Part shown: positions 5,976 to 50,228 of the stretch, piece by piece
Layout of the letters: each line of letters begins with the position of its first letter
Position numbering within the stretch: position 1 is the stretch's first letter
From: a virus
Lineage: Duplodnaviria > Caudoviricetes
Reading direction: 5' to 3' (one strand)
DNA length: 64,000 nt
IMG/VR virus record: IMGVR_UViG_3300027255_000165
Made by a program: the position numbers and the translations under genes
Notes under the pieces: model-generated
The model's database searches: none
The model's input: the letters and a program-made list of their open reading frames with translations, nothing else
Told to the model about the DNA's origin: nothing

Positions 5976-6024
5976 ATTGAATCTATTTACAGGGTTATAC
6001 TACAAAAAACTGAAAAGTTTAGAT

Positions 6025-6089
6025 TAGAGGGGACATTGTTAGGGGCTCCCACCCACTCGGCTTTCGACTCCAATGTTATTTCCCCTCTA
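6025..6089. other. GC-rich intergenic stem-loop of unknown function
   Basis: TAGAGGGGA (6025-6033) pairs with TCCCCTCTA (6081-6089); inner ACATTG pairs with CAATGT. Confidence 0.45.
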
Positions 6090-10486: not shown

Positions 10487-10812
10487 GCTTCAATCTCTAC
10501 TCGCTCGACTGATTCTAAACTCTGAAGAATGTCAACCATGTTAGCCGAAATGGGCTCTTCAGTTTCAGCGTTCAACTCCACTGCGATCTTACACTCAAAA
10601 TTGTTTTCAGAGTGTTGAAGGTTAACAGCCTCTTTAGCTGCTTCATACGCTGCTGTAAAACCTTCAGAACGAACATGATAGACTGACCTTCTACCCGTTT
10701 CAGGGCAATGAAATTCAAATCTAAACAAACGCTTACCAATTCTATTCTGAGTTGCAATAACGTACATTGCGATTCCTGTTGCCGTGATGGCAATTAACAT
10801 GATTGTGACCAT
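10483..10812 (-). CDS. hypothetical membrane-anchored protein
   Basis: ORF track; hydrophobic N-terminus. Confidence 0.55.
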   Translation of the reverse strand: MVTIMLIAITATGIAMYVIATQNRIGKRLFRFEFHCPETGRRSVYHVRSEGFTAAYEAAKEAVNLQHSENNFECKIAVELNAETEEPISANMVDILQSLESVERVEIEA

Positions 10813-11180
10813 TACTTTCTTAATTCAAAGCCCTTTTCGGCTATTCTTTCTAATAGTATCTCTCGATCTCGCTTTGTTTCAACGTAATCGTTCATCAGTT
10901 CATCTGGCACACCGTTCCAGGCATCAGTCCAATCACTGACGTTAAATCCACGGTACAGGGCCTCCCATCTAAGAGAGTTGTAACGATTCAACAGGTACTC
11001 TAATTTATTATAGAAGAATTTGACGTGACCTTGGCCGAGTGTGAATTCTTCAGGAATACCATTCATATTGTACTTACCCTGACGAATGACGTTTGGAATA
11101 CGCTTGATCTCGCGAAGTTCTGCCAATAACAGTTTATCGGGCAATTCTTCAGGTTTGATGCCAGTATTAATTCTTGTCAT
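10812..11180 (-). CDS. denV: pyrimidine-dimer DNA glycosylase (T4 endonuclease V-like)
   Basis: MTRIN, LLAELREIKRI, FTLGQGHVKFFYNKL. Confidence 0.93.
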   Translation of the reverse strand: MTRINTGIKPEELPDKLLLAELREIKRIPNVIRQGKYNMNGIPEEFTLGQGHVKFFYNKLEYLLNRYNSLRWEALYRGFNVSDWTDAWNGVPDELMNDYVETKRDREILLERIAEKGFELRK

Positions 11181-13148: not shown

Positions 13149-13206
13149 TGGTTATTCCGAAGAACAGTATTTATATACTAGATCTAAGGGTTGTTTCATT
13201 TGATAA

Positions 13207-13240
13207 TAAAAAAGCCCGGTCAAAGACCGGGCTTTAAAAA
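13207..13240 (-). terminator. intrinsic terminator, possibly bidirectional
   Basis: AAAGCCCGGTC-AAA-GACCGGGCTTT with A/T runs on both sides. Confidence 0.8.
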
Positions 13241-13259
13241 TAGTTAGTATGAAGTTAGA

Positions 13260-14966
13260 TTATTGAATATACTTGTAAATTCTAAGTTCAACAGTAGCTC
13301 CGGCAGCGTTAAGTGAAGTCTCAACACCTGCAACAATTGGACCTGTAAGAGCTGCATGCCTCGTAGGGTCAATAGAATAATTACCAGCGACAATTTCACC
13401 ATCTGCAATCGTTTCAAAATACTTCCCACCGTAACCGGTAAAATACACCGAGTAAGGTACTATGTTCTTAGAACCGTCAAATTGGTGATTAACTCCAGTG
13501 AATTTAATGTATCCTCCCGGTGCAATGCTTAACCATTCAGCTTGAACAGCTCCAGGAATATCACCGACACCCGCTGCTTTATAGGTACCTGCGCCGGATC
13601 CAGGCATAATACCTTTAATGCTTATGTCAGTGTGGTTGTGTACAATCAGAGTGTGAGGGCCTGTTCCTACGTTAACTTCAGTATATGTTGTAGGGAAATA
13701 AGATCCTGCAACTGAACCCGCAGGTGGCATTGGATCTGGTAGAGTAGTTGGTCTGTATACATTTACAAGTGTAACGTCAAAATGCGCAGGCGATGTAATC
13801 GCAATTCCGCCAGTGGCATTGCCAAGTGTGAATAGATTATTTCCAGAAACTGCTGAAATAAAGCTTATGTTGTTTTGTGCTCTGTTAGTTGATGCATAAA
13901 TCCATTTACCTGACGCATTTGCAAGCTCCAAGTTCATAGTGAATTTGTTAATATCGCTCAAAGGTACGTCAGTTAGAGTAACTGAATGACCAGGTCTAAT
14001 TGGAAGCCATGGAGCCGCAGTATTGCCGTTTCCCAAAGGAGTACCGCTAGGAACGCCATAAGACGCTAACCATGCCTTACCAGCTCCTGATCCAATCGCA
14101 GCATCTTCAATCCACACCTTTACAATAGGTTCAGTTGCTGATGCGTTAGTGATTGTAAGAGAGTGTCCACCCGCTGCACCCAAAGAATATGTAGGTTCTA
14201 CAGGAGCTGTTTGGAACTTAAGTGTTGTAGGAAGAGATGTATTAAGTACACCTGACGCTTCAACCACAACTAACATAGGATTGTAGCCCTGTCCAGTGCC
14301 TCCACCTGTAAGACTTAAATTAGTGTGCCAGATATCTCTGGCTATCCAACATACTGCATAATCACCAGAAGGCTGTTCAAGTCTAACAATATCGCCAGCT
14401 CTTAGATCAGCAAATGCAGCTGTAGCTGCGTTTTTAGTAAAAAAGATGCTAAATGAGTTAACCCCATTCACAGCTGGATAAGCCATAGTAGCCCATATGT
14501 TAGAGACCAGATCATTAGTTGAAGCTGTGAATCCACCGTCAGACCATGGTCTGAATTCTACTGTGTTGTCCCATCCTGCAGGACCTGGAGCAACAGCTGC
14601 AGCCCATGAAGAATAAAGACCAGCTGCGGTTTCAGCCCATACTTTTGCGGCAACAACGTCAGAGAAAAGAGGTTGACCAAGTCTACCTGCAAAGTGATTA
14701 ATCATTTCAAGAACTTTAGCATCACCTGCTCCGCCGTCTGACCAGAACATCGGGTGAGCATCGGCTTCGTTCGTGTAACCTAGTGTGAAAGAATCCGACC
14801 AAATTGTCGTTTCACCTGAAATTTCAGCAGGTGGCATAGCACCTTTGCCTAGAGCAAGTTCGGCTGGCATTGCACCCGTTCCGTCCCACTCGTAAAGTTT
14901 GTTTGCTTTAGCGTTAACGCTGCCTAGACCTGGATTAGAAGATCTAAAATATAATGGATTTGGCAT
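13260..14966 (-). CDS. hypothetical virion/structural-type protein inserted in the tRNA island
   Basis: 568-aa Gly/Ala/Thr-rich beta-type ORF with its own GATATATA motif (14993-15000) and flanking terminators; N-terminus resembles the middle of 33550-35037. Confidence 0.6.
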   Translation of the reverse strand: MPNPLYFRSSNPGLGSVNAKANKLYEWDGTGAMPAELALGKGAMPPAEISGETTIWSDSFTLGYTNEADAHPMFWSDGGAGDAKVLEMINHFAGRLGQPLFSDVVAAKVWAETAAGLYSSWAAAVAPGPAGWDNTVEFRPWSDGGFTASTNDLVSNIWATMAYPAVNGVNSFSIFFTKNAATAAFADLRAGDIVRLEQPSGDYAVCWIARDIWHTNLSLTGGGTGQGYNPMLVVVEASGVLNTSLPTTLKFQTAPVEPTYSLGAAGGHSLTITNASATEPIVKVWIEDAAIGSGAGKAWLASYGVPSGTPLGNGNTAAPWLPIRPGHSVTLTDVPLSDINKFTMNLELANASGKWIYASTNRAQNNISFISAVSGNNLFTLGNATGGIAITSPAHFDVTLVNVYRPTTLPDPMPPAGSVAGSYFPTTYTEVNVGTGPHTLIVHNHTDISIKGIMPGSGAGTYKAAGVGDIPGAVQAEWLSIAPGGYIKFTGVNHQFDGSKNIVPYSVYFTGYGGKYFETIADGEIVAGNYSIDPTRHAALTGPIVAGVETSLNAAGATVELRIYKYIQ

Positions 14967-15031: not shown

Positions 15032-15060
15032 AAAAAACCCGGTCAAAAAGACCGGGTTTG
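15032..15060 (-). terminator. intrinsic terminator downstream of tRNA-His
   Basis: AAACCCGGTC-TTTTT-GACCGGGTTT followed by a T-run on the minus strand. Confidence 0.8.
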
Positions 15061-15117
15061 ACGGGGGACCGCGTAAAAGCCGTTGCGATCGGCTTGTTGA
15101 TACGCAATTTATATATC

Positions 15118-15195: not shown

Positions 15196-15202
15196 ATTTA
15201 CA

Positions 15203-15429
15203 TTAACACTAGTAACCGGGATTCTGTTTTATTCCACCATTAATCTAAGCCACTACCTTGCCCAGGCTGCTCACCCCTATGGACTATTACGTGTTGCATC
15301 CTCGGTGGTATAACGGTTATAACCTTTCCAAAACTCTGTTTTTTTACTAGTTTTGGAAAGGTTATAACCTTCCACCTTAAGCAGTGATGTCCCGAGTTTC
15401 CTCTCTTTCGAGCGATGGATCAGTGTTAA
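15203..15429 (-). ncRNA. rnpB: minimal RNase P RNA (catalytic domain; specificity domain replaced by one hairpin)
   Basis: Hallmark GAGGAAACTCGGGAC (15403-15389) and AAAACAGAATCCCGGTTA (15230-15213) form P4 with a bulged U. Also P1 TTAACACTG/TAGTGTTAA, P3 CTC-GAAA-GAG, P5 CATC/GATG, GCAA..AATAG, L15-like GGTA and TAGATTAATG. Confidence 0.88.
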
Positions 15430-15433
15430 TTAT

Positions 15434-15871: not shown

Positions 15872-15990
15872 GGAAGAGGCTCTGGGTCTTTCAGGGTTTC
15901 TGATAGATGATTTGTTTACGCTCTGATTACTCCAAACCCTTTTTCACCATTTTAACACCATCATCTATTACAGCTTGCACTGCCTCTTCC
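15872..15990 (-). ncRNA. unidentified ~120-nt structured RNA between tRNA-Tyr and tRNA-Phe
   Basis: Terminal stem GGAAGAGGC/GCCTCTTCC, asymmetric bubble, inner ATAGATGAT/ATCATCTAT stem; only 3-4 nt from the flanking tRNAs. Confidence 0.65.
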
Positions 15991-16426: not shown

Positions 16427-16460
16427 GGCTAATATACAACAAAAACTTGACCCGGTAAAA
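16427..16460 (-). promoter_or_regulatory. repeated putative early/host-RNAP promoter motif, copy 1 of 5
   Basis: TTTTACCGGGTC-N-TTTTTGTTGTATATTAGCCC; related copies at about 18599, 18908, 28797 and 29907, all upstream of minus-strand starts. Confidence 0.7.
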
Positions 16461-16491
16461 CTTTTACGAAACTTTTTTACGGTTGCGATTG

Positions 16492-16565
16492 AGGTGAGTA
16501 GTGGATTCGAACCACTGAACGTCTGTTTTGCAAACAGCTCCCTTAGGCCACTCGAGCAACTCACC
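16492..16565 (-). tRNA. tRNA-Cys(GCA)
   Basis: CTGT-TTGCAAA-ACAG anticodon arm; acceptor GGTGAGT/ACTCACC; U73. Confidence 0.95.
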
Positions 16566-16603
16566 AAAAAAAGAAAGGCCTCAATCTTTCGATGAGGCCT
16601 TTC
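16566..16603 (-). terminator. attenuator terminator directly abutting tRNA-Cys
   Basis: GAAAGGCCTC-ATC-GAAA-GAT-T-GAGGCCTTTC followed by 7 T, then G1 of tRNA-Cys. Confidence 0.85.
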
Positions 16604-16626
16604 AAGAACGTTAAGTAAAACAGTAC

Positions 16627-16704
16627 TTACATTTTCACATAGGCCTCATTCTCACCTGGATACCAGATGCAGAATTTATTGTTATGTTGAATTAGTGTAC
16701 GCAT
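16627..16704 (-). CDS. putative attenuation leader peptide MRTLIQHNNKFCIWYPGENEAYVKM (missed by the ORF track)
   Basis: ATG with an A-rich context (AAAACAATG) 23 nt below a GATATATA motif; codons 19-22 contain ATGAGGCCT, complementary to the 5' arm of the terminator. Confidence 0.78.
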   Translation of the reverse strand: MRTLIQHNNKFCIWYPGENEAYVKM

Positions 16705-16882
16705 TGTTTTAGCTTTGTTTGAGACTTATATATCTGAATCTTTCTTTGTTTCACCACAGTCACATGGTTTAATTGTGGCGATGGTTGTATTAACTACCCA
16801 TGCAACACACATAACCAAGAATAGTGATGCGAATGGGTGTTCTGCGATAATGTCTACGAGTTGTGCTAACGAGTTCATGTCT

Positions 16883-17626
16883 TTAAAAGTCTACGCCTTC
16901 TACTGGCTGAGTTTGAGAATTGCCAGCTGCTTCAAACCGGAGCTGACTTACGGGATTCCACTTTAATGCTAACGCGCTCATGTTTTGATTGTACATTGAG
17001 CGAAGATCTTGTCGTGGGTGCCAAGTATACGTTGCTGGCAAAAATTCGTCTGATACGATGATATTTTGCTTTAACGTCTGTAGATTGGTTTCAACCAGCT
17101 TGCTGATTCCAGATTTATTCAATACATAACAATGTGTTTGATATGAGTAACCTGGACGAATAAAGTTAGTTAAACCTACGTTGAAATCTTTGACCATTGG
17201 ATGATTAACCAACAATCTCGATAAGAAGATGAGATCCCAATCATAGTTCTGTAATTCAGTAAAGACGCTCCAATCTATCGTTTCGATTGGATTGAAGTCA
17301 TCTTCTATGATTAAGATGTTTTCATAACCATTTCGGTATGCATCTTCCCAGATTTTAATGTGGGAGCAGATTCCACCGGCTTCACCAGTTGTTACTGGCC
17401 GATTCCACCATTCGTTGTTAGTGCCTTGAGCCCAATTATCATAGAACTTGATTCCATATTCATTTCGACCCTCCTCTGTCTTAAATAACTGGCGACCATT
17501 AACTCCTTCAATAATTTTATAAGGTGTTCCTGTGGGAACCCCTAGCCTGTTTAAACGATCAATTAACGAGTCATAACTCTGTTGACTATGATCTAAGGTA
17601 ATCAGGTAAATGTTATCAATCTTCAT
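16883..17626 (-). CDS. GT25 glycosyltransferase resembling the procollagen galactosyltransferase C-terminal domain
   Basis: YLITL, GVNGR, GEAGGICSHIKIW, ILIIEDD, YSYQTHCYVL, SDEFLP; start trimmed to the MKIDN ATG. Confidence 0.82.
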   Translation of the reverse strand: MKIDNIYLITLDHSQQSYDSLIDRLNRLGVPTGTPYKIIEGVNGRQLFKTEEGRNEYGIKFYDNWAQGTNNEWWNRPVTTGEAGGICSHIKIWEDAYRNGYENILIIEDDFNPIETIDWSVFTELQNYDWDLIFLSRLLVNHPMVKDFNVGLTNFIRPGYSYQTHCYVLNKSGISKLVETNLQTLKQNIIVSDEFLPATYTWHPRQDLRSMYNQNMSALALKWNPVSQLRFEAAGNSQTQPVEGVDF

Positions 17627-17960
17627 TCTTCTTGAAAATGATTTCTTCACCGTTCTCGTCATCAATCCAATCTATCACACCGTCTTGACGAAGACGAAGT
17701 AACGATTCATAGATGTCAATCTTAATTGTAATGTCATCGAATGCTTCAGCATCTAATTGTAGGTCTCCGTAATTGACTAGATTATCGGTCGCGGCTTCAC
17801 AAACCAAATCATGAAAAATATCTTCATGGGTTTGTGTTTTGAACAATACGTCATCATGGTGAACATGTTCATCAATGTGACGAACTCCCTGCACCATCTT
17901 GTCAGCGTATTCTTTAACTCGAGGAGTCCATTCGGTTGTGAAAAGATCTTCTAGTTTCAT
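17616..17960 (-). CDS. hypothetical protein
   Basis: ORF track. Confidence 0.55.
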   Translation of the reverse strand: MKLEDLFTTEWTPRVKEYADKMVQGVRHIDEHVHHDDVLFKTQTHEDIFHDLVCEAATDNLVNYGDLQLDAEAFDDITIKIDIYESLLRLRQDGVIDWIDDENGEEIIFKKNED

Positions 17961-23761: not shown

Positions 23762-23791
23762 GGTGATTATATTTGTTGTGGTTTAATTGTT

Positions 23792-24004
23792 TCATTTTAC
23801 GTGGAACAGCACCCAAAATAGAGCATCAACAAATTCGCACCACACGTACATAATAACCCAATAGATCAGGAATTTAGACCATTCGGGTAGGTGAACCTCT
23901 ACTCGTTCTTTTTCAGGATGCTTCTTTTTAGAGCGATGACGTAACCATCTACTTACAGTTGCAAGTGCTCCAGCATAAAAGAAGTTCTGAGGGAAATCTA
24001 TCAC
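23792..24004 (-). CDS. small membrane protein
   Basis: ORF track. Confidence 0.5.
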   Translation of the reverse strand: MIDFPQNFFYAGALATVSRWLRHRSKKKHPEKERVEVHLPEWSKFLIYWVIMYVWCEFVDALFWVLFHVK

Positions 24005-27482: not shown

Positions 27483-27628
27483 TGCTGATCTTTTAGGTTG
27501 CTATTTGGATTTATAGATCCCTGTGCGGCCTTTGTTTCAGCTTCCTTTGATTTAATGAAATCAGTAAGATCTTTGATTGAGCCCTGATAAAGGCGGATTC
27601 TTTCTAAACGAGGGTCTTGGTGTTTCAT
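27479..27628 (-). CDS. small hypothetical protein (not in the ORF track)
   Basis: Manual: MKHQDPRLERIRLYQGSIKDL..., 49 aa. Confidence 0.45.
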   Translation of the reverse strand: MKHQDPRLERIRLYQGSIKDLTDFIKSKEAETKAAQGSINPNSNLKDQQ

Positions 27629-29906: not shown

Positions 29907-29940
29907 GGGCTAATATAACAAAAACCCACGACCCGGTAAA
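29907..29940 (-). promoter_or_regulatory. repeated promoter motif, copy 5
   Basis: TTTACCGGGTCGTGGGTTTTTGTTATATTAGCCC. Confidence 0.65.
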
Positions 29941-32321: not shown

Positions 32322-33331
32322 ATTGTGTTTATGATGTGTAACCATTGTTCGACTCGAAAGTTCCAGGTTTGCTGCTTTGCCCATTCGTGAGCTCTACGTC
32401 TGAGTTTAGCTTTAACCTCTGGAGATCCGTGAAGTACTTTGATTATATTTAGAATGTCAGTGTCTGTTTCACCACTTTCGAGTAAAAAACCTCGATTGCC
32501 CACCACTTCTGACAGAGCGGCAAGATTGGTTGTAATAGGTATGGCTCCGCAATATTGCGCTTCCAATGCAGTGATGCCGTAAGTTTCTTCATAATGCGTG
32601 GGGTGTAACCAGTACTCTGATTTCATCTGCCAGTTGTGAAGAGTCATTTGATCAACAGTGCCCATATAGGTGACACCGTCTAATTGTGGCAATGGGCTAT
32701 TATCTATATCGTACCCGGGCCCGAACACTCTTAGGGTTGCTCCAATGAGATTCTGATGTATTCTAGGCCACATCTTTAGAAGATCATACAATCCTCTTTC
32801 ACGGGCAGAAGAATAGATGAATGAATTTGGAATCTTTTCAACTTTCCAAGATGGAAAATCATTTCGATCAATACCGTTACCAATTACGTGGATTGGTTTC
32901 TGCAGGCTGTAATCTCTGATCAATTGCTGCTTGTGCCACTCAGTTAGGGCAATGAATCCATTGATTCGAGGATCTTCTAACCATGAGGAATCAATCACAG
33001 CCTCGCCTCTCCACCAAGGAAACCAATCTGTGTTATGGAACCAGAATAGTGACTTATCGAAATTGTTAAACTCTTTTAAATAGTGGAGGTATGATGCAGC
33101 GATCAACAGATCAAAATGTTGTTGATGGCACTGATCAATGTTAAGCCACGTAACTCCATTGTGGAATGTACTTTCTACTTGTCCACCAAAACAAACCGCG
33201 TGACCCCTCTTCGCAAGGCCCTCAGCCAATTTTAGAGCTGCAATCTCAGTACCGCCAACCCCATCGCAGCTTTCAATTCGCTGAGGAGTTATGTTAGTGT
33301 TTTGATAACCTACGTAAACGAGGATCTTCAT
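32318..33331 (-). CDS. GT4-family (GT-B) glycosyltransferase
   Basis: GVGGTEIA, VIGNGID, YSSARERGL, EETYGITALEAQ. Confidence 0.88.
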   Translation of the reverse strand: MKILVYVGYQNTNITPQRIESCDGVGGTEIAALKLAEGLAKRGHAVCFGGQVESTFHNGVTWLNIDQCHQQHFDLLIAASYLHYLKEFNNFDKSLFWFHNTDWFPWWRGEAVIDSSWLEDPRINGFIALTEWHKQQLIRDYSLQKPIHVIGNGIDRNDFPSWKVEKIPNSFIYSSARERGLYDLLKMWPRIHQNLIGATLRVFGPGYDIDNSPLPQLDGVTYMGTVDQMTLHNWQMKSEYWLHPTHYEETYGITALEAQYCGAIPITTNLAALSEVVGNRGFLLESGETDTDILNIIKVLHGSPEVKAKLRRRAHEWAKQQTWNFRVEQWLHIINTI

Positions 33332-43397: not shown

Positions 43398-46300
43398 TTA
43401 AAGTTTATTTATTCTATTTTCTAGATCCTTCACTCTAGAGTGTAGGTCCTTAACGATTTCGAATAAGTAAACCGTCATTTTGTCGTAATGCATCGAGATG
43501 AAGCCACCTTGACCGTCAGAAACTGCTAGTCTCTCGTCAAATGCAGCAACTTCTTCTGCAATGAAACCTAGGTCTTTCTTACCAGATTCTTTCCATGTGA
43601 ACTCTCTAGCATTCAGGCTTAGGAATTCCTCAGCGTCAAATGTTAGAGTTTCAACATCAGTCTTGAATCGTAGTGATGAACCTTGGAAACCAACTCCATT
43701 AGATACAAAATCCCACATCATTGGCATTGGAGCTTCCATATCTCCGTCGTTCACCATTGCGCTGTTAGAGAATTCGACCCAGGTCCCGTTCGGGTATGGA
43801 CCACCAGGTTGGCTGTAGAAACCAACATCACCGGCTTTCCATAGGAGCGTGTTACCGTCAAACGTTAGGTTAGTTTCACCGTTGATGGTTGTAGAACCAG
43901 TGGCTGTAAGAACTCTATTGTTGACGTTGTTTGTGATAGGAGCAGCTGCACCTTGAGCACCTTGAGCACCTGTAGCACCTTGAGCACCTGTAGCACCGCC
44001 AGCGCCTTGAGCACCTTGAGCACCTGTAGCACCAGTAGAACCTTTAGCACCACCAGCACCTTGAGCACCTTGTACACCTGAAGGAATAGTAAACTGGAAG
44101 TTAGCATTGGTAGCGTTACCAATGTTTAGAACTTCAACTGGAGTACCAGGTCCACCTGTTAGGGCTGGAGCAACATCGATTGTTGCTGCAGTACCTGTGT
44201 TACCTTGAGCGCCTTGAGCGCCTTGAGCACCTGTAGCGCCTTTTTGGCCTTGAGCACCTTGAGCACCTGTAGCACCTTGAGCACCTTGAGCACCGTTAAC
44301 ACCTGAAGAACCAGAAGTACCTGATGAACCAGAAGTACCATTGACACCTGCGGCACCTTGAGCACCTTGAGCACCTGTAGCGCCTTGAGCACCTTGAGCA
44401 CCTTGAGCACCAGTAGAGCCTTTAGCACCGTTAACACCTGAAGAACCAGATGTACCTGATGAACCAGAAGTACCTGATGAACCAGAAGTACCGGCAGCAC
44501 CTTGAGCACCTTGAGCACCTTGAGCACCTTGAGCACCTTGAGCACCAGTAGCGCCTTGAGCACCTGTAGCACCGCCAGCGCCTTGAGCACCTTGAGCACC
44601 GTTAACACCTGAAGAACCAGACGTGCCTGATGAACCAGATGAACCAGATGTACCTGAAGTACCAGCAGCGCCTTGAGCACCTTGAGCACCCGTAGCACCA
44701 GTCTGACCTTTTTGACCTTTTTGACCAACTGGAATTGTAAATTCAAAGTTGGCGTTTAAAGTATCACCTAGGTTTACAACTTGAGCAGGAGTACCTTCAG
44801 CCGATGTAACTGTTGGAGCAACGTTAACTTGGGCTGCAGTACCTACGTTACCTTGAGCACCTTGGGCACCTGTAGCACCTTGAGCACCTTGAGCACCAGT
44901 AGCACCTTTAGCACCGTTAACACCTGAAGAACCAGATGTACCTGATGAACCTGATGAACCTGATGCACCTTGAGCACCTTGAGCACCTTGAGCACCAGTA
45001 GAGCCTTTAGCACCGTTAACACCTGAAGAACCAGATGTACCTGATGAACCAGAAGTACCAGAAGTACCGTTTGTACCAGAAGTACCGTTTGTGCCTGATG
45101 AACCTGAAGTACCAGAAGTACCGTTTGTACCAGAAGTACCGTTTGTACCAGAAGTACCGTTTGTACCAGAAGTACCGCTTGTACCATTAGTACCAGAAGT
45201 ACCATTTGTACCTGATGAACCAGATGTACCAGAAGTACCGTTTGTACCAGAAGTACCGTTTGTACCATTTGTACCCGATGAGCCTGAAGTACCAGAAGTA
45301 CCTGCAGCTCCTTGAGCGCCTGTAGCACCTTTTTGACCTTTTTGACCAATTGGGATTGTGAATTCTAGGTTAGCGTTCAAAGGCGTTCCAATGTTTAGAA
45401 CTTCAACTGGAGTACCTTCTGCACCAGTAAGAGCTGGAGCAACATCGATTGTTGCTGCAGTACCGACTGCACCTTGAGCACCTTGAGCACCTTGAGCACC
45501 TTGAGCACCTTGAGCACCTTGAGCACCAGTAGCACCTTTAGCACCGTTAACACCTGAAGAACCAGATGTACCTGATGAACCTGATGAACCTGATGAACCT
45601 GATGAACCTGAAGTACCGTTTGTACCAGAAGTACCGTTTGTACCAGATGAACCTGAAGTACCTGAAGAACCCGATGAACCTGATGAACCAGAAGTACCAT
45701 TTGTACCAGAAGTACCATTTGTACCTGATGAACCAGATGAACCAGATGATCCTGAAGTACCATTTGTACCTGAAGTACCGTTAGTACCGTTAGTACCTGA
45801 AGAACCAGATGAACCAGATGAACCAGATGAGCCTGAAGTACCGTTAGTACCTGAAGAACCAGATGAACCAGAAGTACCGTTTAGATCAGCTACTAGGTTC
45901 CATGCGGCAGCTCCGTCCCATTGATAAACAAGACCGTCTGCTGTGAAACCTAGTTGACCAGGGAATGAACCTGTACCTAATTCTACAACTGAAGATGCTG
46001 ACTTAGCACCATCATGTCCAGAAGTACCCGATGTACCAGAAGTACCCGATGTACCAGATGAGCCTGAAGTACCTGAAGTACCGTTTGTACCTGATGAACC
46101 TGATGTTCCAGCAGTACCTGAAGTACCTGAAGTACCAGAAGAACCTGATGTACCGTTTGTACCTGATGTTCCAGAAGTACCTGAAGTACCTGATGTACCA
46201 GATGAACCAGATGAACCTGAAGTTCCAGATGTACCATTAGTACCTGATGTACCGTTAGTACCTGATGTACCAGAAGAACCTGATGTTCCAGCAGTACCTG

Positions 46301-49300
46301 AAGTACCTGATGTACCAGAAGAACCTGATGTTCCAGCAGTACCTGAAGTACCTGATGTACCAGAAGAACCTGATGTACCAGATGAACCAGATGAACCTGA
46401 AGTACCCGAGATACCGCCTGCACCTGCAACCGTGTATTTAATAATTAGCATGTTTCCGATCACTGGCACATAACCAGGATCTGGAGAGTTAATTCTAGCA
46501 ACAGTGAAGACTGCTTCGTTACCGACAATCAATTTAGCATTAATTGTGAACTCGTGTCTATCAGCACCGTTAAATTCGAACAATAGTTGTGAAGCAGCAC
46601 CCATCACATTATGAAGGGTTGTTCTGTCATTCATCCATCTATCGAAATTATTGATTCTAATTTCTGTTGCGTTGTATAGATCGCCTGTATTTGTGGTGAA
46701 GTTAGTTGCAGTTGCATCTCCTTGACCACCAAAGAAATAAGGCGCGTCAATTGTACCGTTAACACCTGATGTACCAGAAGTACCAGCAGTACCAGAAGTA
46801 CCGTTTGTACCGTTTGTACCAGAAGTGCCAGAAGTACCAGAAGTACCAGAAGTACCAGAAGTACCGTTTGTACCTGATGTACCGTTTGTACCTGAAGAAC
46901 CTGAAGTACCAGCAGTACCTGAAGAACCAGATGTACCAGAAGTACCGTTTGTACCTGATGTACCGTTTGTACCTGAAGAACCTGATGTACCAGAAGTACC
47001 AGAAGTACCGTTTGTACCTGAAGTACCGTTAGTACCTGAAGAACCTGAAGTACCGTTAGTACCTGAAGTACCGTCTGTACCATCTGTACCTGAAGAACCT
47101 GAAGTACCGTTTGTACCTGAAGAACCTGAAGTACCGTTTGTACCATTTGTACCTGAAGAACCTGAAGTACCGTTTGTACCATTTGTACCTGAAGAACCTG
47201 AAGTACCGTTTGTACCTGAAGAACCAGATGAACCCGAAGAACCCGAAGAACCCGAAGAACCTGAAGTACCGTTTGTACCTGAAGAACCAGATGAACCCGA
47301 AGAACCTGAAGAACCTGAAGTACCGTTTGTACCTGAAGAACCAGATGAACCCGAAGAACCTGAAGAACCTGAAGTACCGTTTGTACCTGAAGAACCCGAA
47401 GTACCGTTTGTACCTGAAGAACCCGAAGTACCGTTTGTACCATTTGTACCTGAAGAACCCGAAGTACCGTTTGTACCGTTTGTACCTGAAGAACCCGAAG
47501 TACCAGAAGTACCAGAAGTACCAGAAGTACCAGATGAACCAGAAGTACCAGAAGTACCAGATGAACCTGAAGAACCGCCAGTACCATTTGTACCAGATGA
47601 ACCTGAAGTACCTGAAGTGCCTGAAGTACCAGATGAACCTGAAGTACCAGATGAACCTGAAGTACCTGAAGTACCCGAAGTACCCGAAGTACCTGAAGTA
47701 CCAGATGAGCCTGAAGTACCTGAAGTGCCTGAAGTACCAGATGAACCTGAAGTACCAGATGAACCTGAAGTACCTGAAGTACCCGAAGTACCTGAAGTAC
47801 CTGAAGTACCAGATGAGCCTGAAGTTCCGTCTGTACCAGATGAGCCTGAAGTTCCGTCTGTACCAGATGAGCCTGAAGTTCCGTCTGTACCAGATGAACC
47901 TGAAGTTCCGTCTGTACCAGATGAACCTGAAGTACCTGAAGTACCTGAAGTACCTGAAGTACCTGATGTACCATCAGTGCCGTCTAAGCCTGAAGTACCA
48001 GATAGACCCGATGAACCAGAAGTACCATCTGTACCTGATGAACCAGAAGAACCTCCTTCACCAGTTATACCTGATGAACCAGAAGTACCAGAAGTACCAG
48101 AAGTACCAGATGTTCCTGAAGTACCGTTTGTACCTGATGAACCTGAAGTACCAGAAGTACCAGAAGTACCAGATGAACCTGAAGTACCAGAAGTACCAGA
48201 TGTTCCAGATGTACCGTCTGTGCCAGAAGTTCCAGAAGTACCAGAAGAACCTGGAAGACCAGCTTCACCTGAAATGTAACCTTTAAATGTCCATGCGCCG
48301 CCACCTGGAGTAGATCCTTCGTTAGCCGTACATGTCTCTTCGATCACTGTTTGTACCGCACCAGGGGCGTGGCTGTTAGTAACAATACCACCAGAATAGG
48401 TTGCGATTGTGTTAAGTGATGAAGTTGAATAAGTAGTCATCAACAGCACCTGTGCGTTAGCGTTGTAAGCGTCAACTTTCAATACATCAGCGTAATCAAT
48501 ATCTGCTTGAGTGTATGCGTCGTCGCTACCACCGTCAGGTGCGTCTGTAATAAGAACAATGTACTTAGCAACACCTTCTCTAAAGCCACCTACCATACCA
48601 GAGTTGATTACTCTATCAAGAGCAATACCTGCTGGTTCTGGAGTACCTTGACCATTACCTAGAGGGAAGTCAACTGTATTCATCTTGTTCAACTGTGAAG
48701 TGAACGAAGAGATGTTGTTTGACGAGAATGTCTCTAGAGCAGTGATGTGTGAAGATCTGCTAGCTGTGTAATTGTTTAGAATGTATCTCTGTGTAGATGG
48801 AAGAGCGTTGTAAGTTGCAGTTGCACCGTAAGTTGGTGTACCGTCAACTCCGTACTCGTCAAATGTTACAAGAGATAGTCTGTAGTTGTTATTAGATTCT
48901 GTCTCGATCGTTGAAGCGATAGCTGCAATTGAAGACTTAACGTTGTTGATTGCTCCACCCATTGAACCGGTGTAGTCAACCAAGAACACAACGTCCATAC
49001 CTTGATCACATGGTGCAGGGTTACCAGGACCATAGCCTGACCATTCCCAAATACCACCGTCACAGTCAAAATAAAGTTGACCAACGAATGAACCTGTTAC
49101 GTCACCATTTGGATCGCCGTAACATCCTGATTTAGCGCCATCATAACCTGATGAACCTGAAGTACCAGATGTACCTGATGTACCTGATGTACCATCTGTA
49201 CCTGATGAACCTGAAGTACCTGAAGTACCCGAAGTACCTGAAGTACCTGATGTACCTGATGTACCATCTGTACCTGATGAACCAGAGGTACCAGAAGTAC

Positions 49301-50228
49301 CAGAAGTACCAGAAGTACCAGAAGTACCAGAAGTACCAGATGAACCTGAAGAACCGCCAGTACCATTTGTACCAGATGAACCTGAAGTACCTGAAGTGCC
49401 TGAAGTACCAGATGAACCTGAAGTACCAGATGAACCTGAAGTACCTGAAGTACCCGAAGTACCCGAAGTACCTGAAGTACCAGATGAGCCTGAAGTACCT
49501 GAAGTGCCTGAAGTACCAGATGAACCTGAAGTACCAGATGAACCTGAAGTACCTGAAGTACCCGAAGTACCTGAAGTACCTGAAGTACCAGATGAGCCTG
49601 AAGTTCCGTCTGTACCAGATGAGCCTGAAGTTCCGTCTGTACCAGATGAGCCTGAAGTTCCGTCTGTACCAGATGAACCTGAAGTTCCGTCTGTACCAGA
49701 TGAACCCGAAGTACCTGAAGTACCTGAAGTACCTGAAGTACCTGATGTACCATCTGTACCTGATGAACCTGAAGTACCAGATGAACCGGAACTACCGTCC
49801 GTACCATCTAGACCCGAAGTTCCAGATAGACCTGAAGTACCAGATGAACCTGAAGAACCTGAAGTGCCTGAAGTACCCGAAGTACCTGATGAACCGGAAC
49901 TACCGTCCGTACCATCGGTACCGTCTGTACCTGATGAACCAGATGAGCCTGAAGAACCTGAAGTACCCGAAGTACCTGAAGAACCAGATGTACCTGAAGA
50001 TCCAGATGTACCTGAAGTTCCTGAAGTACCAGCGGTACCAGAAGTACCAGAAGTACCAGACGAACCAGACGTACCTGAAGAACCAGAAGTACCAGACGAG
50101 CCAGACGTACCTGATGAACCCGAGGTACCCGAAGTTCCGGCTGTGCCGGAAGTACCTGAAGTACCGTTAGTACCTGAAGAACCAGAAGAACCTGAGGTAC
50201 CTGTCGTTTTAATTAAAGGAATTGCCAT
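43398..50228 (-). CDS. giant fibre protein: GTS/GSS repeats, vWA domain, collagen-like segments and S74 chaperone
   Basis: 2276 aa; v[14 protein letters not shown]...[12 protein letters not shown]; C-terminal SSLRFKTDV...FTWK..GFIAEEV. Confidence 0.88.
47538..47975. repeat. ~438-bp direct repeat, copy 1
   Basis: Near-identical to 49317-49754 (offset 1779 nt, in frame); one mismatch seen by eye. Confidence 0.75.
49317..49754. repeat. ~438-bp direct repeat, copy 2
   Basis: Shares the unique anchor GAACCGCCAGTACCATTTG with copy 1. Confidence 0.75.

Follow-up and report, generated by a model that had tools for sequence, protein, structure and literature searches.

A candidate leader-peptide attenuator ahead of a tRNA gene cluster in an uncultured marine jumbo phage

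The window analyzed here, a 64,000-nucleotide (nt) stretch of DNA from the IMG/VR record IMGVR_UViG_3300027255_000165, is part of an uncultured marine jumbo phage with nearly all genes on one strand. On its minus strand, just downstream of a GT25 glycosyltransferase gene (17665-16883), lies a compact unit composed of a promoter, a short open reading frame (ORF, the leader) and a terminator that leads directly into a cluster of ten tRNA genes, identified with ARAGORN between 16565 and 12805 (Cys, Lys, Tyr, Phe, Met, His, Pro, Ile, Gln, and Asn). The leader ORF runs over 25 codons from ATG to TAA (16627-16704) and encodes MRTLIQHNNKFCIWYPGENEAYVKM. Its codons 5-16 (16657-16692; ATT CAA CAT AAC AAT AAA TTC TGC ATC TGG TAT CCA), translated as IQHNNKFCIWYP (IQHNNKFCIWYP), form the proposed sensor. 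A 23-nt spacer separates the leader stop from the terminator hairpin, GAAAGGCCUCAUC-GAAA-GAUUGAGGCCUUUC followed by seven uridines (U7; 16603-16566), in which the 5' arm (16591-16603), the GAAA loop (16590-16587), the 3' arm (16586-16573) and U7 (16572-16566) are followed without a gap by G1 of tRNA-Cys (GCA; 16491-16565), the first gene that the terminator could gate. The initial annotation had placed a promoter motif, the ORF, the hairpin with U7 and the first base of tRNA-Cys at these positions, and all of them are present there. The hairpin at 16603-16566 was missed by a gapless consensus terminator scan, probably owing to a bulge in its upper stem.

The promoter (16725-16753) has two parts, a −35-like TGAAACA (16753-16747) and, after a 16-nt spacer, a −10 element TATAAG (16730-16725), and is supported by motif enrichment and conservation. 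The motif GATATATA (16734-16727), previously taken as the promoter, does exist but is not the whole of it: the string GATATATAA (16734-16726) contains the −10 TATAAG and so represents only the −10 part of TGAAACA-N16-TATAAG. Transcription would start near 16718, ~14 nt ahead of the short ORF. On the coding strand of the window, TGAAACA-N16-(A)TATAA occurs in four to six copies against 0.3 expected (>10-fold enrichment). The motif scan returned sites at 13171-13198, 16726-16753, 23767-23794, 32443-32471, 27511-27538, and 580-606, all on the minus strand, and the copy at 13198-13171 sits directly ahead of tRNA-Pro. At the copies at 23767 and 580 an ATG follows only ~6 nt past the motif, which suggests from sequence that the genes behind them are transcribed as leaderless messenger RNAs. 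In the window, a 50-codon minus-strand ORF (16878-16726) ends within GATATATAA; in relatives the promoter reads TTGAAACA-N16-TATAAA (locus L007) or TTGAAACA-N16-TATAAT (locus L041) and lies outside any ORF. The leader ATG stands exactly 21 nt past GATATATAA in all variants described below, though the intervening bases differ. A promoter and a terminator within ~150 nt of each other, with a mini-ORF between them, indicate the anatomy of an attenuator or a small non-coding RNA (sRNA) and not that of an operon tail.

With the GT25 protein as an anchor for finding relatives in metagenome contigs and a protein collection, the leader unit was detected as six natural variants, spread over three subclades of uncultured phages of estuarine and marine origin, whose neighbouring GT25 protein is 75-99% identical across leader-carrying variants. 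The variants comprise the window type (MRTLIQHNNKFCIWYPGENEAYVKM; L194-197, identical to the window), the L043 type (MRTLIQHSNKFCSWYPGENEVYVKM; L043, L044, L186-189, L198, and L199), L041 (MQTLNQHICPKNFWYPEEKACV), the L007 type (MQLRNQHICPKNFWYPEAEAHV; L007, L190, and L191), L042 (MQLRNQHICPKNFWYPEAEARV), whose contig ends within the terminator, and an RNA-library variant (MRTLIQHSNKFCNWYPGAE), represented by contigs in two RNA-library runs and a fragment in a third. The ORF recognized in the window is kept in all three subclades: the frame is open through codon 16 in 6/6 variants, and the indel between subclades measures 3 nt within the ORF, as against 4 and 2 nt past the stop. The terminator hairpin with U7 directly abuts tRNA-Cys G1 in every variant. 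The tRNA-Cys of the L007 subclade, at 71 nt (L007:5036-5106, L190:1869-1939), differs greatly in sequence, yet it begins directly past the terminator U7; as the sequence differs while the junction is kept, this gene was either replaced or has sharply diverged. The RNA-library variant resembles the L043 type and carries I13N and, through a 1-nt insertion, a +1 frameshift. It ends at codon 19, at a UGA stop inside the antiterminator segment defined below, and thus retains codons 1-16 without the original C-terminus.

IMG/VR scans with two leader patterns gave only chance matches within coding regions, and those with the terminator pattern and the 5' half of tRNA-Cys gave no matches. A pattern scan of genome contigs yielded >120 matches in unrelated bacteria, which we take as chance from collection size alone. 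Among GenBank phages, a DNA search found no near relative, the sole match being part of a tRNA-like stretch in huge-phage records, and a search with the GT25 protein found no match. In the assembly collection the protein is present in >200 blocks and on contigs of up to 223 kb.

We compared alternative folds in the four complete variants (window, L043, L041, and L007). The whole leader region of the window folds with −50 kcal/mol (z = −5.0 against shuffles) and can be divided into four segments. Segment 1 (16683-16715) spans the 5' untranslated region (5'UTR), the AUG and codons 1-8. Segment 2 (16613-16649) comprises AUGAGGCCU (16649-16641, codons 19-22), the stop-codon region and the spacer, and has two alternative partners, segment 1 or the terminator 5' arm. 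That arm, GAAAGGCCUCAUC, is segment 3, and the terminator 3' arm is segment 4. The 9-bp complementarity proposed in the initial annotation is exact (ATGAGGCCT, 16649-16641, against AGGCCTCAT, 16600-16592), and the pairing is real but not confined to these 9 bp: the antiterminator (2:3) is a two-part helix of ~−20 kcal/mol. Across the four variants its outer and inner helices together reach −19.1 to −20.7 kcal/mol (z −3.6 to −4.6), and in each of them no more than 0.3% of shuffles matched this stability (P ≤ 0.003). The outer helix is kept despite differing terminators, with 9 bp in the window, 9 including one G·U in L043, 8 in L041, and 7 in L007. Beyond the earlier reading, we found a third fold, the 1:2 anti-antiterminator. 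In this long imperfect hairpin, segment 1 pairs with codons 21 to stop and the spacer; its tip is formed by a small hairpin over codons 12-18 (P2, CAUCUGG-UAU-CCAGGUG, 16653-16669), which is possibly a pause hairpin for RNA polymerase. The leader-only 1:2 fold has −25 to −30 kcal/mol (z −3.4 to −4.1), and the terminator hairpin −16 to −20 kcal/mol. The three folds are mutually exclusive and balanced in energy in all four variants.

A thermodynamic model in which a 29-nt ribosome footprint was masked, with the A site placed by codon, bore out the dependence on ribosome position that the initial annotation had suggested checking by constrained folding. With the mask at codons 5-14 the antiterminator was the best fold, and a mask at the stop codon removed it in 4/4 variants. 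At codon 16 the antiterminator was gone in 3/4 variants, and a shortened helix stayed in the window sequence. In these models the four-segment logic is that of the trp attenuator.

Substitutions between variants support the stems. Scored on alignment A1 against the window structure, three stem pairs changed on both sides: 36-107 (T-A to A-T), 51-95 (T-A to C-G), and 67-81 (A-T to T-A). Column pair 51-95 is a C-A mismatch in L007 that is mended in L042 by CAT to CGT (His to Arg); as the pair is restored at the cost of an amino-acid replacement, the peptide follows the needs of the RNA in its C-terminal part. In L007 and L041, P2 reads CUUCUGG-UAU-CCAGAAG, with one compensatory A-U to U-A pair. 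The expected covariation between leader and terminator arm was also found: the position that follows GGCC holds U, U or C and its arm partner is A, G or G, so that the contact goes U-A, U·G, C-G, matching the terminator's own pair at A-U, G-C, G-C. Column-wise covariation fails for the outer stems because their helices differ in register from one subclade to the next. Column counts thus underrate how well they are conserved, which was judged by per-sequence folds and shuffles.

The leader hairpin is long, significantly stable and supported by compensatory changes, and an intrinsic terminator lies behind it; this is also the usual anatomy of an sRNA. The ~150-nt terminated transcript might itself be the product, with an incidental ORF and a tRNA-Cys supplied by leaky read-through, and a peptide whose C-terminal part tracks RNA pairing needs would fit. 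This reading leaves unexplained the fixed position of the ATG, the in-frame indel, and the frame open through codon 16 in every variant. Nor does it account for the alternative pairing, also conserved, between segment 2 and the terminator arm, or for the match between amino acids and tRNA set in permuted order described next, and we consider it quite unlikely.

The composition of the leader corresponds to the tRNA genes of the clade. The window and L194 share the ten-gene cluster given above; L186 carries this set plus Trp and minus Phe. On contigs that end within the cluster, L190 encodes Cys, Trp, Lys, Tyr, Phe, and His, and L041 encodes Cys, Trp, Met, Lys, Tyr, and Phe. Pooling these sets across the clade and leaving out Met gives {C,W,K,Y,F,H,P,I,Q,N}. 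As the initial annotation had stated, codons 5-16 of the window cover all nine non-Met identities of its cluster, plus Trp. In the window, L007, L041, and L042 they consist of exactly the ten pooled types and no others, and in the last three they read NQHICPKNFWYP, permuted in order relative to the window. Between the window and L007/L041 sensors there are five aligned identities, and the other seven positions are a near-permutation. Under a nucleotide-composition null, simulation puts the chance of a 12-codon run of only these types with all ten present at ~5e-7; under a proteome null, the chance that 24 residues cover all ten is 2.6e-4. The window contains 68,853 stop-free 12-mers in six frames, and the sensor is the sole one that consists of cluster amino acids only and includes all ten. 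The only other 12-mer made up entirely of cluster amino acids, KNCPINCYWQNF (~11114-11149, minus strand), has nine types and lies out of frame within ORF 10812-11180; we take it as a chance match that calibrates the false-positive rate of the composition test. Changes in codons 5-16 within the window lineage (N8S, I13S, and I13N) strike only duplicated amino acids, so that every type stays. Because composition is kept while order and termini drift, selection seems to act on which tRNAs are used and not on the peptide.

The Trp codon, for which the window offers no tRNA, had led to the suggestion that a tRNA-Trp might be found elsewhere. Relatives indeed carry a tRNA-Trp (CCA) 26 nt past tRNA-Cys, which explains the Trp codon in the window leader. 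Comparison of window 16466-16490 with L043:5883-5985 shows that the tRNA-Trp (CCA) gene of L043, L041, and L007 has been lost from the window by deletion, and single tRNA genes come and go between strains whose neighbouring protein is 99% identical. The idea that leader codons track each tRNA set accordingly holds for the clade as a whole but not for every genome.

These data also bear on the possibility that the peptide is the product, either of an ordinary small protein gene or as a nascent arrest peptide around WYP, with a terminator that is partly leaky. The ORF is conserved, and Q6, H7, and WYP are invariant at aligned positions. Against this stand seven core residues permuted between subclades and variable N- and C-termini. 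The natural frameshift replaces everything past codon 17 and keeps codons 1-16, which argues against a functional peptide; in addition, amino-acid changes track RNA pairing, and WYP coincides with the palindromic hairpin UGG-UAU-CCA. Arrest at WYP in particular was rejected, since a ribosome stalled there would cover segment 2 and favour termination. Altogether, a peptide product is very unlikely.

We propose that the unit is probably a ribosome-mediated (leader-peptide) transcription attenuator that gates the phage tRNA genes through a leader acting as a codon checklist. The steps below, including translation of the ORF, stalling-dependent read-through and the trigger, are inferred from folds and geometry. 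With no ribosome, or with a ribosome at the ORF end, segment 2 would be either base-paired to segment 1 or hidden under the ribosome. The hairpin of the terminator would then form together with U7, and the transcript would stop one base before tRNA-Cys. A ribosome stalled within about codons 2-15 would hold segment 1 and free segment 2, which could pair with the terminator 5' arm in an antiterminator (~−20 kcal/mol) similar in stability to the terminator. RNA polymerase would continue into tRNA-Cys, in relatives also into tRNA-Trp, and onward through the following units as far as tRNA-His. As each of the ten types is represented once or twice among codons 5-16, a shortage of any of them should raise tRNA output. 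Scarcity of any charged tRNA among the ten would thus yield more phage tRNA and plenty would cause shutdown, a negative-feedback homeostat. The biological trigger may be loss of host tRNAs, anticodon nucleases or starvation. More tentatively, the checklist could allow the phage to detect the loss of any of ~10 host tRNAs, be it through degradation in the course of infection, defence by anticodon nucleases or starvation, to transcribe its own replacements and to shut off on their accumulation, which would make it an on-demand circuit for counter-defence and homeostasis and, for tRNA genes, the first known case of control by attenuation. Full-text literature searches returned no description of attenuation for phage tRNA genes or tRNA operons.

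Several observations weigh against this proposal. The evidence consists of six variants of one narrow clade. A sister subclade (L006, L040, and L182-185) has neither leader nor tRNA-Cys at the site, and distant relatives (GT25 57-62% identical; L001-L017) lack the leader and carry other tRNAs behind the glycosyltransferase gene, with only three tRNAs in the 180.8-kb record behind L001. As these distant relatives carry no leader, the comparison of leader and tRNA set covers the narrow clade. In ribosome-free RNA cut before the 3' arm, the antiterminator is already the minimum free energy fold in 3/4 variants, so the "off" default must rest on the order of folding during transcription, that is, on kinetics. 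The multi-kb RNA-library contigs span the glycosyltransferase gene, leader, terminator and tRNAs, and cannot show transcript ends or exclude carried-over DNA. Further points concern the codons. UGG-UAU-CCA (W-Y-P) is also fixed by the P2 hairpin, codons 2-4 (Arg, Thr, and Leu) lie within sensing range and do not correspond to cluster tRNAs, and sensitivity may be low with one or two codons per amino acid, as compared with the codon runs of classical attenuators. The window lacks tRNA-Trp yet keeps TGG, L186 lacks tRNA-Phe yet keeps TTC, and Ser codons occur in some variants, one or two per leader, with two in the L043 type.

Such per-genome mismatches (Trp in the window, Phe in L186, Ser in L043) and the single codons per amino acid would suit a leader that uses the same attenuator hardware to sense overall translation speed or capacity, unmatched to the cluster tRNAs. 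Any slowdown of elongation would then raise read-through, as in attenuators induced by ribosome-targeting antibiotics, and the presence of 18/20 amino acids in 25 codons (P = 0.002 for such diversity) points the same way. However, in 4/6 variants the 12 codons in sensing range specify all ten cluster amino acids and none besides, even though their order is permuted, and the other 2/6 replaced duplicated residues only. A general sensor needs no such composition, and we regard it as unlikely.

The number of genes strictly gated by the putative attenuator is limited by a second promoter-like site (16431-16459, minus strand), TTTACC(GGGTCAA)-N-TATATT of the class TTTT(A/T)CCGGGTCAA-N12-TATATT, which follows tRNA-Cys/Trp. 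This also counts against the proposal, as later tRNAs would have an attenuator-independent supply. The initial annotation had regarded only tRNA-Cys as certainly under direct control; in agreement, only tRNA-Cys/Trp would depend strictly on read-through. The motif is conserved in L006 (1255-1290), L040 (2665-2700), L041, and L043 (~6008-6040), and in the leaderless sister subclade it comes directly after the small upstream ORF. The string ttttaccgggtc also occurs ahead of a GTG at 29929. No terminator was seen between the leader terminator and 15059-15035, so read-through transcripts could reach tRNA-His. Directly past tRNA-His lies a copy of GATATATAA (15109-15117, minus strand), followed ~50 nt on by a strong terminator (15035-15059) with no ORF between; past this terminator come GATATATAC and a 568-amino-acid gene. 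Stretches of ~110-120 nt free of ORFs and tRNAs also occur inside the tRNA arrays (L040:2709-2816, L006:1530-1592, and window 15872-15990, minus strand), where they separate the promoter from tRNA-Tyr in the leaderless subclade and tRNA-Tyr from tRNA-Phe in the window. An Rfam scan of the window stretch 15872-15990 found no family match.

The wider gene content of the window includes tail-fibre genes, collagen-like genes, the GT25 glycosyltransferase, and a phage sigma factor. A Shine-Dalgarno-like motif precedes 6/56 phage genes, so its absence before the leader ORF is normal for this phage. The closest relatives of the sigma factor are found in crAss-like phages, Prevotella phages, and huge uncultured phages; together with the rarity of Shine-Dalgarno motifs, this phage context suggests a host within Bacteroidota. 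In a 2276-amino-acid protein (43398-50228, minus strand), 22 collagen-repeat matches occur together with a VWA domain and an S74 chaperone domain, and the same phage thus encodes a collagen-repeat protein and a collagen galactosyltransferase-like GT25 (16883-17665). Just upstream of tRNA-His, 15197-15431 (minus strand) matches bacterial class A RNase P RNA (46 bits, E = 2.8e-12). The match is weak but significant, scoring below the gathering score of 100 and spanning the full model in ~235 nt, and may represent an RNase P RNA that is encoded by the phage and greatly reduced in size.

Phage tRNA genes are commonly attributed to codon-usage matching and, lately, seen as replacements for host tRNAs that are destroyed during infection or by defence nucleases. 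If the proposed attenuator operates, phages would gauge decoding capacity directly and supply tRNAs on demand, attenuation would extend from amino-acid biosynthesis to the tRNA pool itself, and the leader would provide a compact natural sensor for the availability of specific tRNAs. Further cases could be sought by a simple signature in genomes, namely a promoter, a checklist ORF and a terminator that abuts a tRNA.

Known systems share parts of this design. An Rfam scan (E ≤ 1) found no overlap with 16566-16734 save a chance-level match to the snoRNA SNORA18 (E = 0.55); leader families (Trp_leader, His_leader, Thr_leader, Leu_leader, Bacteroid-trp, and others) gave no match at the site, and the only Trp_leader match in the scanned region is sub-threshold and lies at another terminator (13206-13296). 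T-box riboswitches bind uncharged tRNA directly via a specifier loop and a T-box bulge, with no ORF. They likewise sense tRNA status through a choice between terminator and antiterminator, but the phage element carries a conserved ORF and has no Rfam T-box match, and a T-box was therefore rejected. The vmlR, bmrCD, and lmo0919 leaders, known from Term-seq, are ribosome-stalling attenuators with a drug-bound ribosome as trigger and resistance proteins as targets. A stall anywhere in their short leader ORF flips the terminator to the antiterminator, as proposed here, and makes them sensors of translation trouble, whereas those leaders have no match between codons and product. The trpL leader of Escherichia coli and the his, phe, and leu leaders combine a short promoter-near ORF, four segments with 1:2, 2:3, and 3:4 folds, and a terminator before the regulated genes. 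The phage unit resembles them in its promoter-near short ORF, in its 1:2, 2:3, and 3:4 folds of comparable energy, in a terminator directly before the putatively regulated genes, in a length of ~140 nt from start codon to terminator end, and in the position of its regulatory codons in or before segment 1. It differs in being phage-encoded, in targeting tRNAs and not enzymes of amino-acid biosynthesis, in showing no sequence or covariance-model similarity to them, and in sampling ten amino acids one or two times each and not a run of one. Multivalent attenuators such as ilvL (ilvGMEDA) and thrL respond to two or three amino acids in clustered repeats. There too a single leader answers to several amino acids; the phage leader would extend this to ten, mostly through single codons, in a set that corresponds to the identities of the tRNAs encoded downstream.

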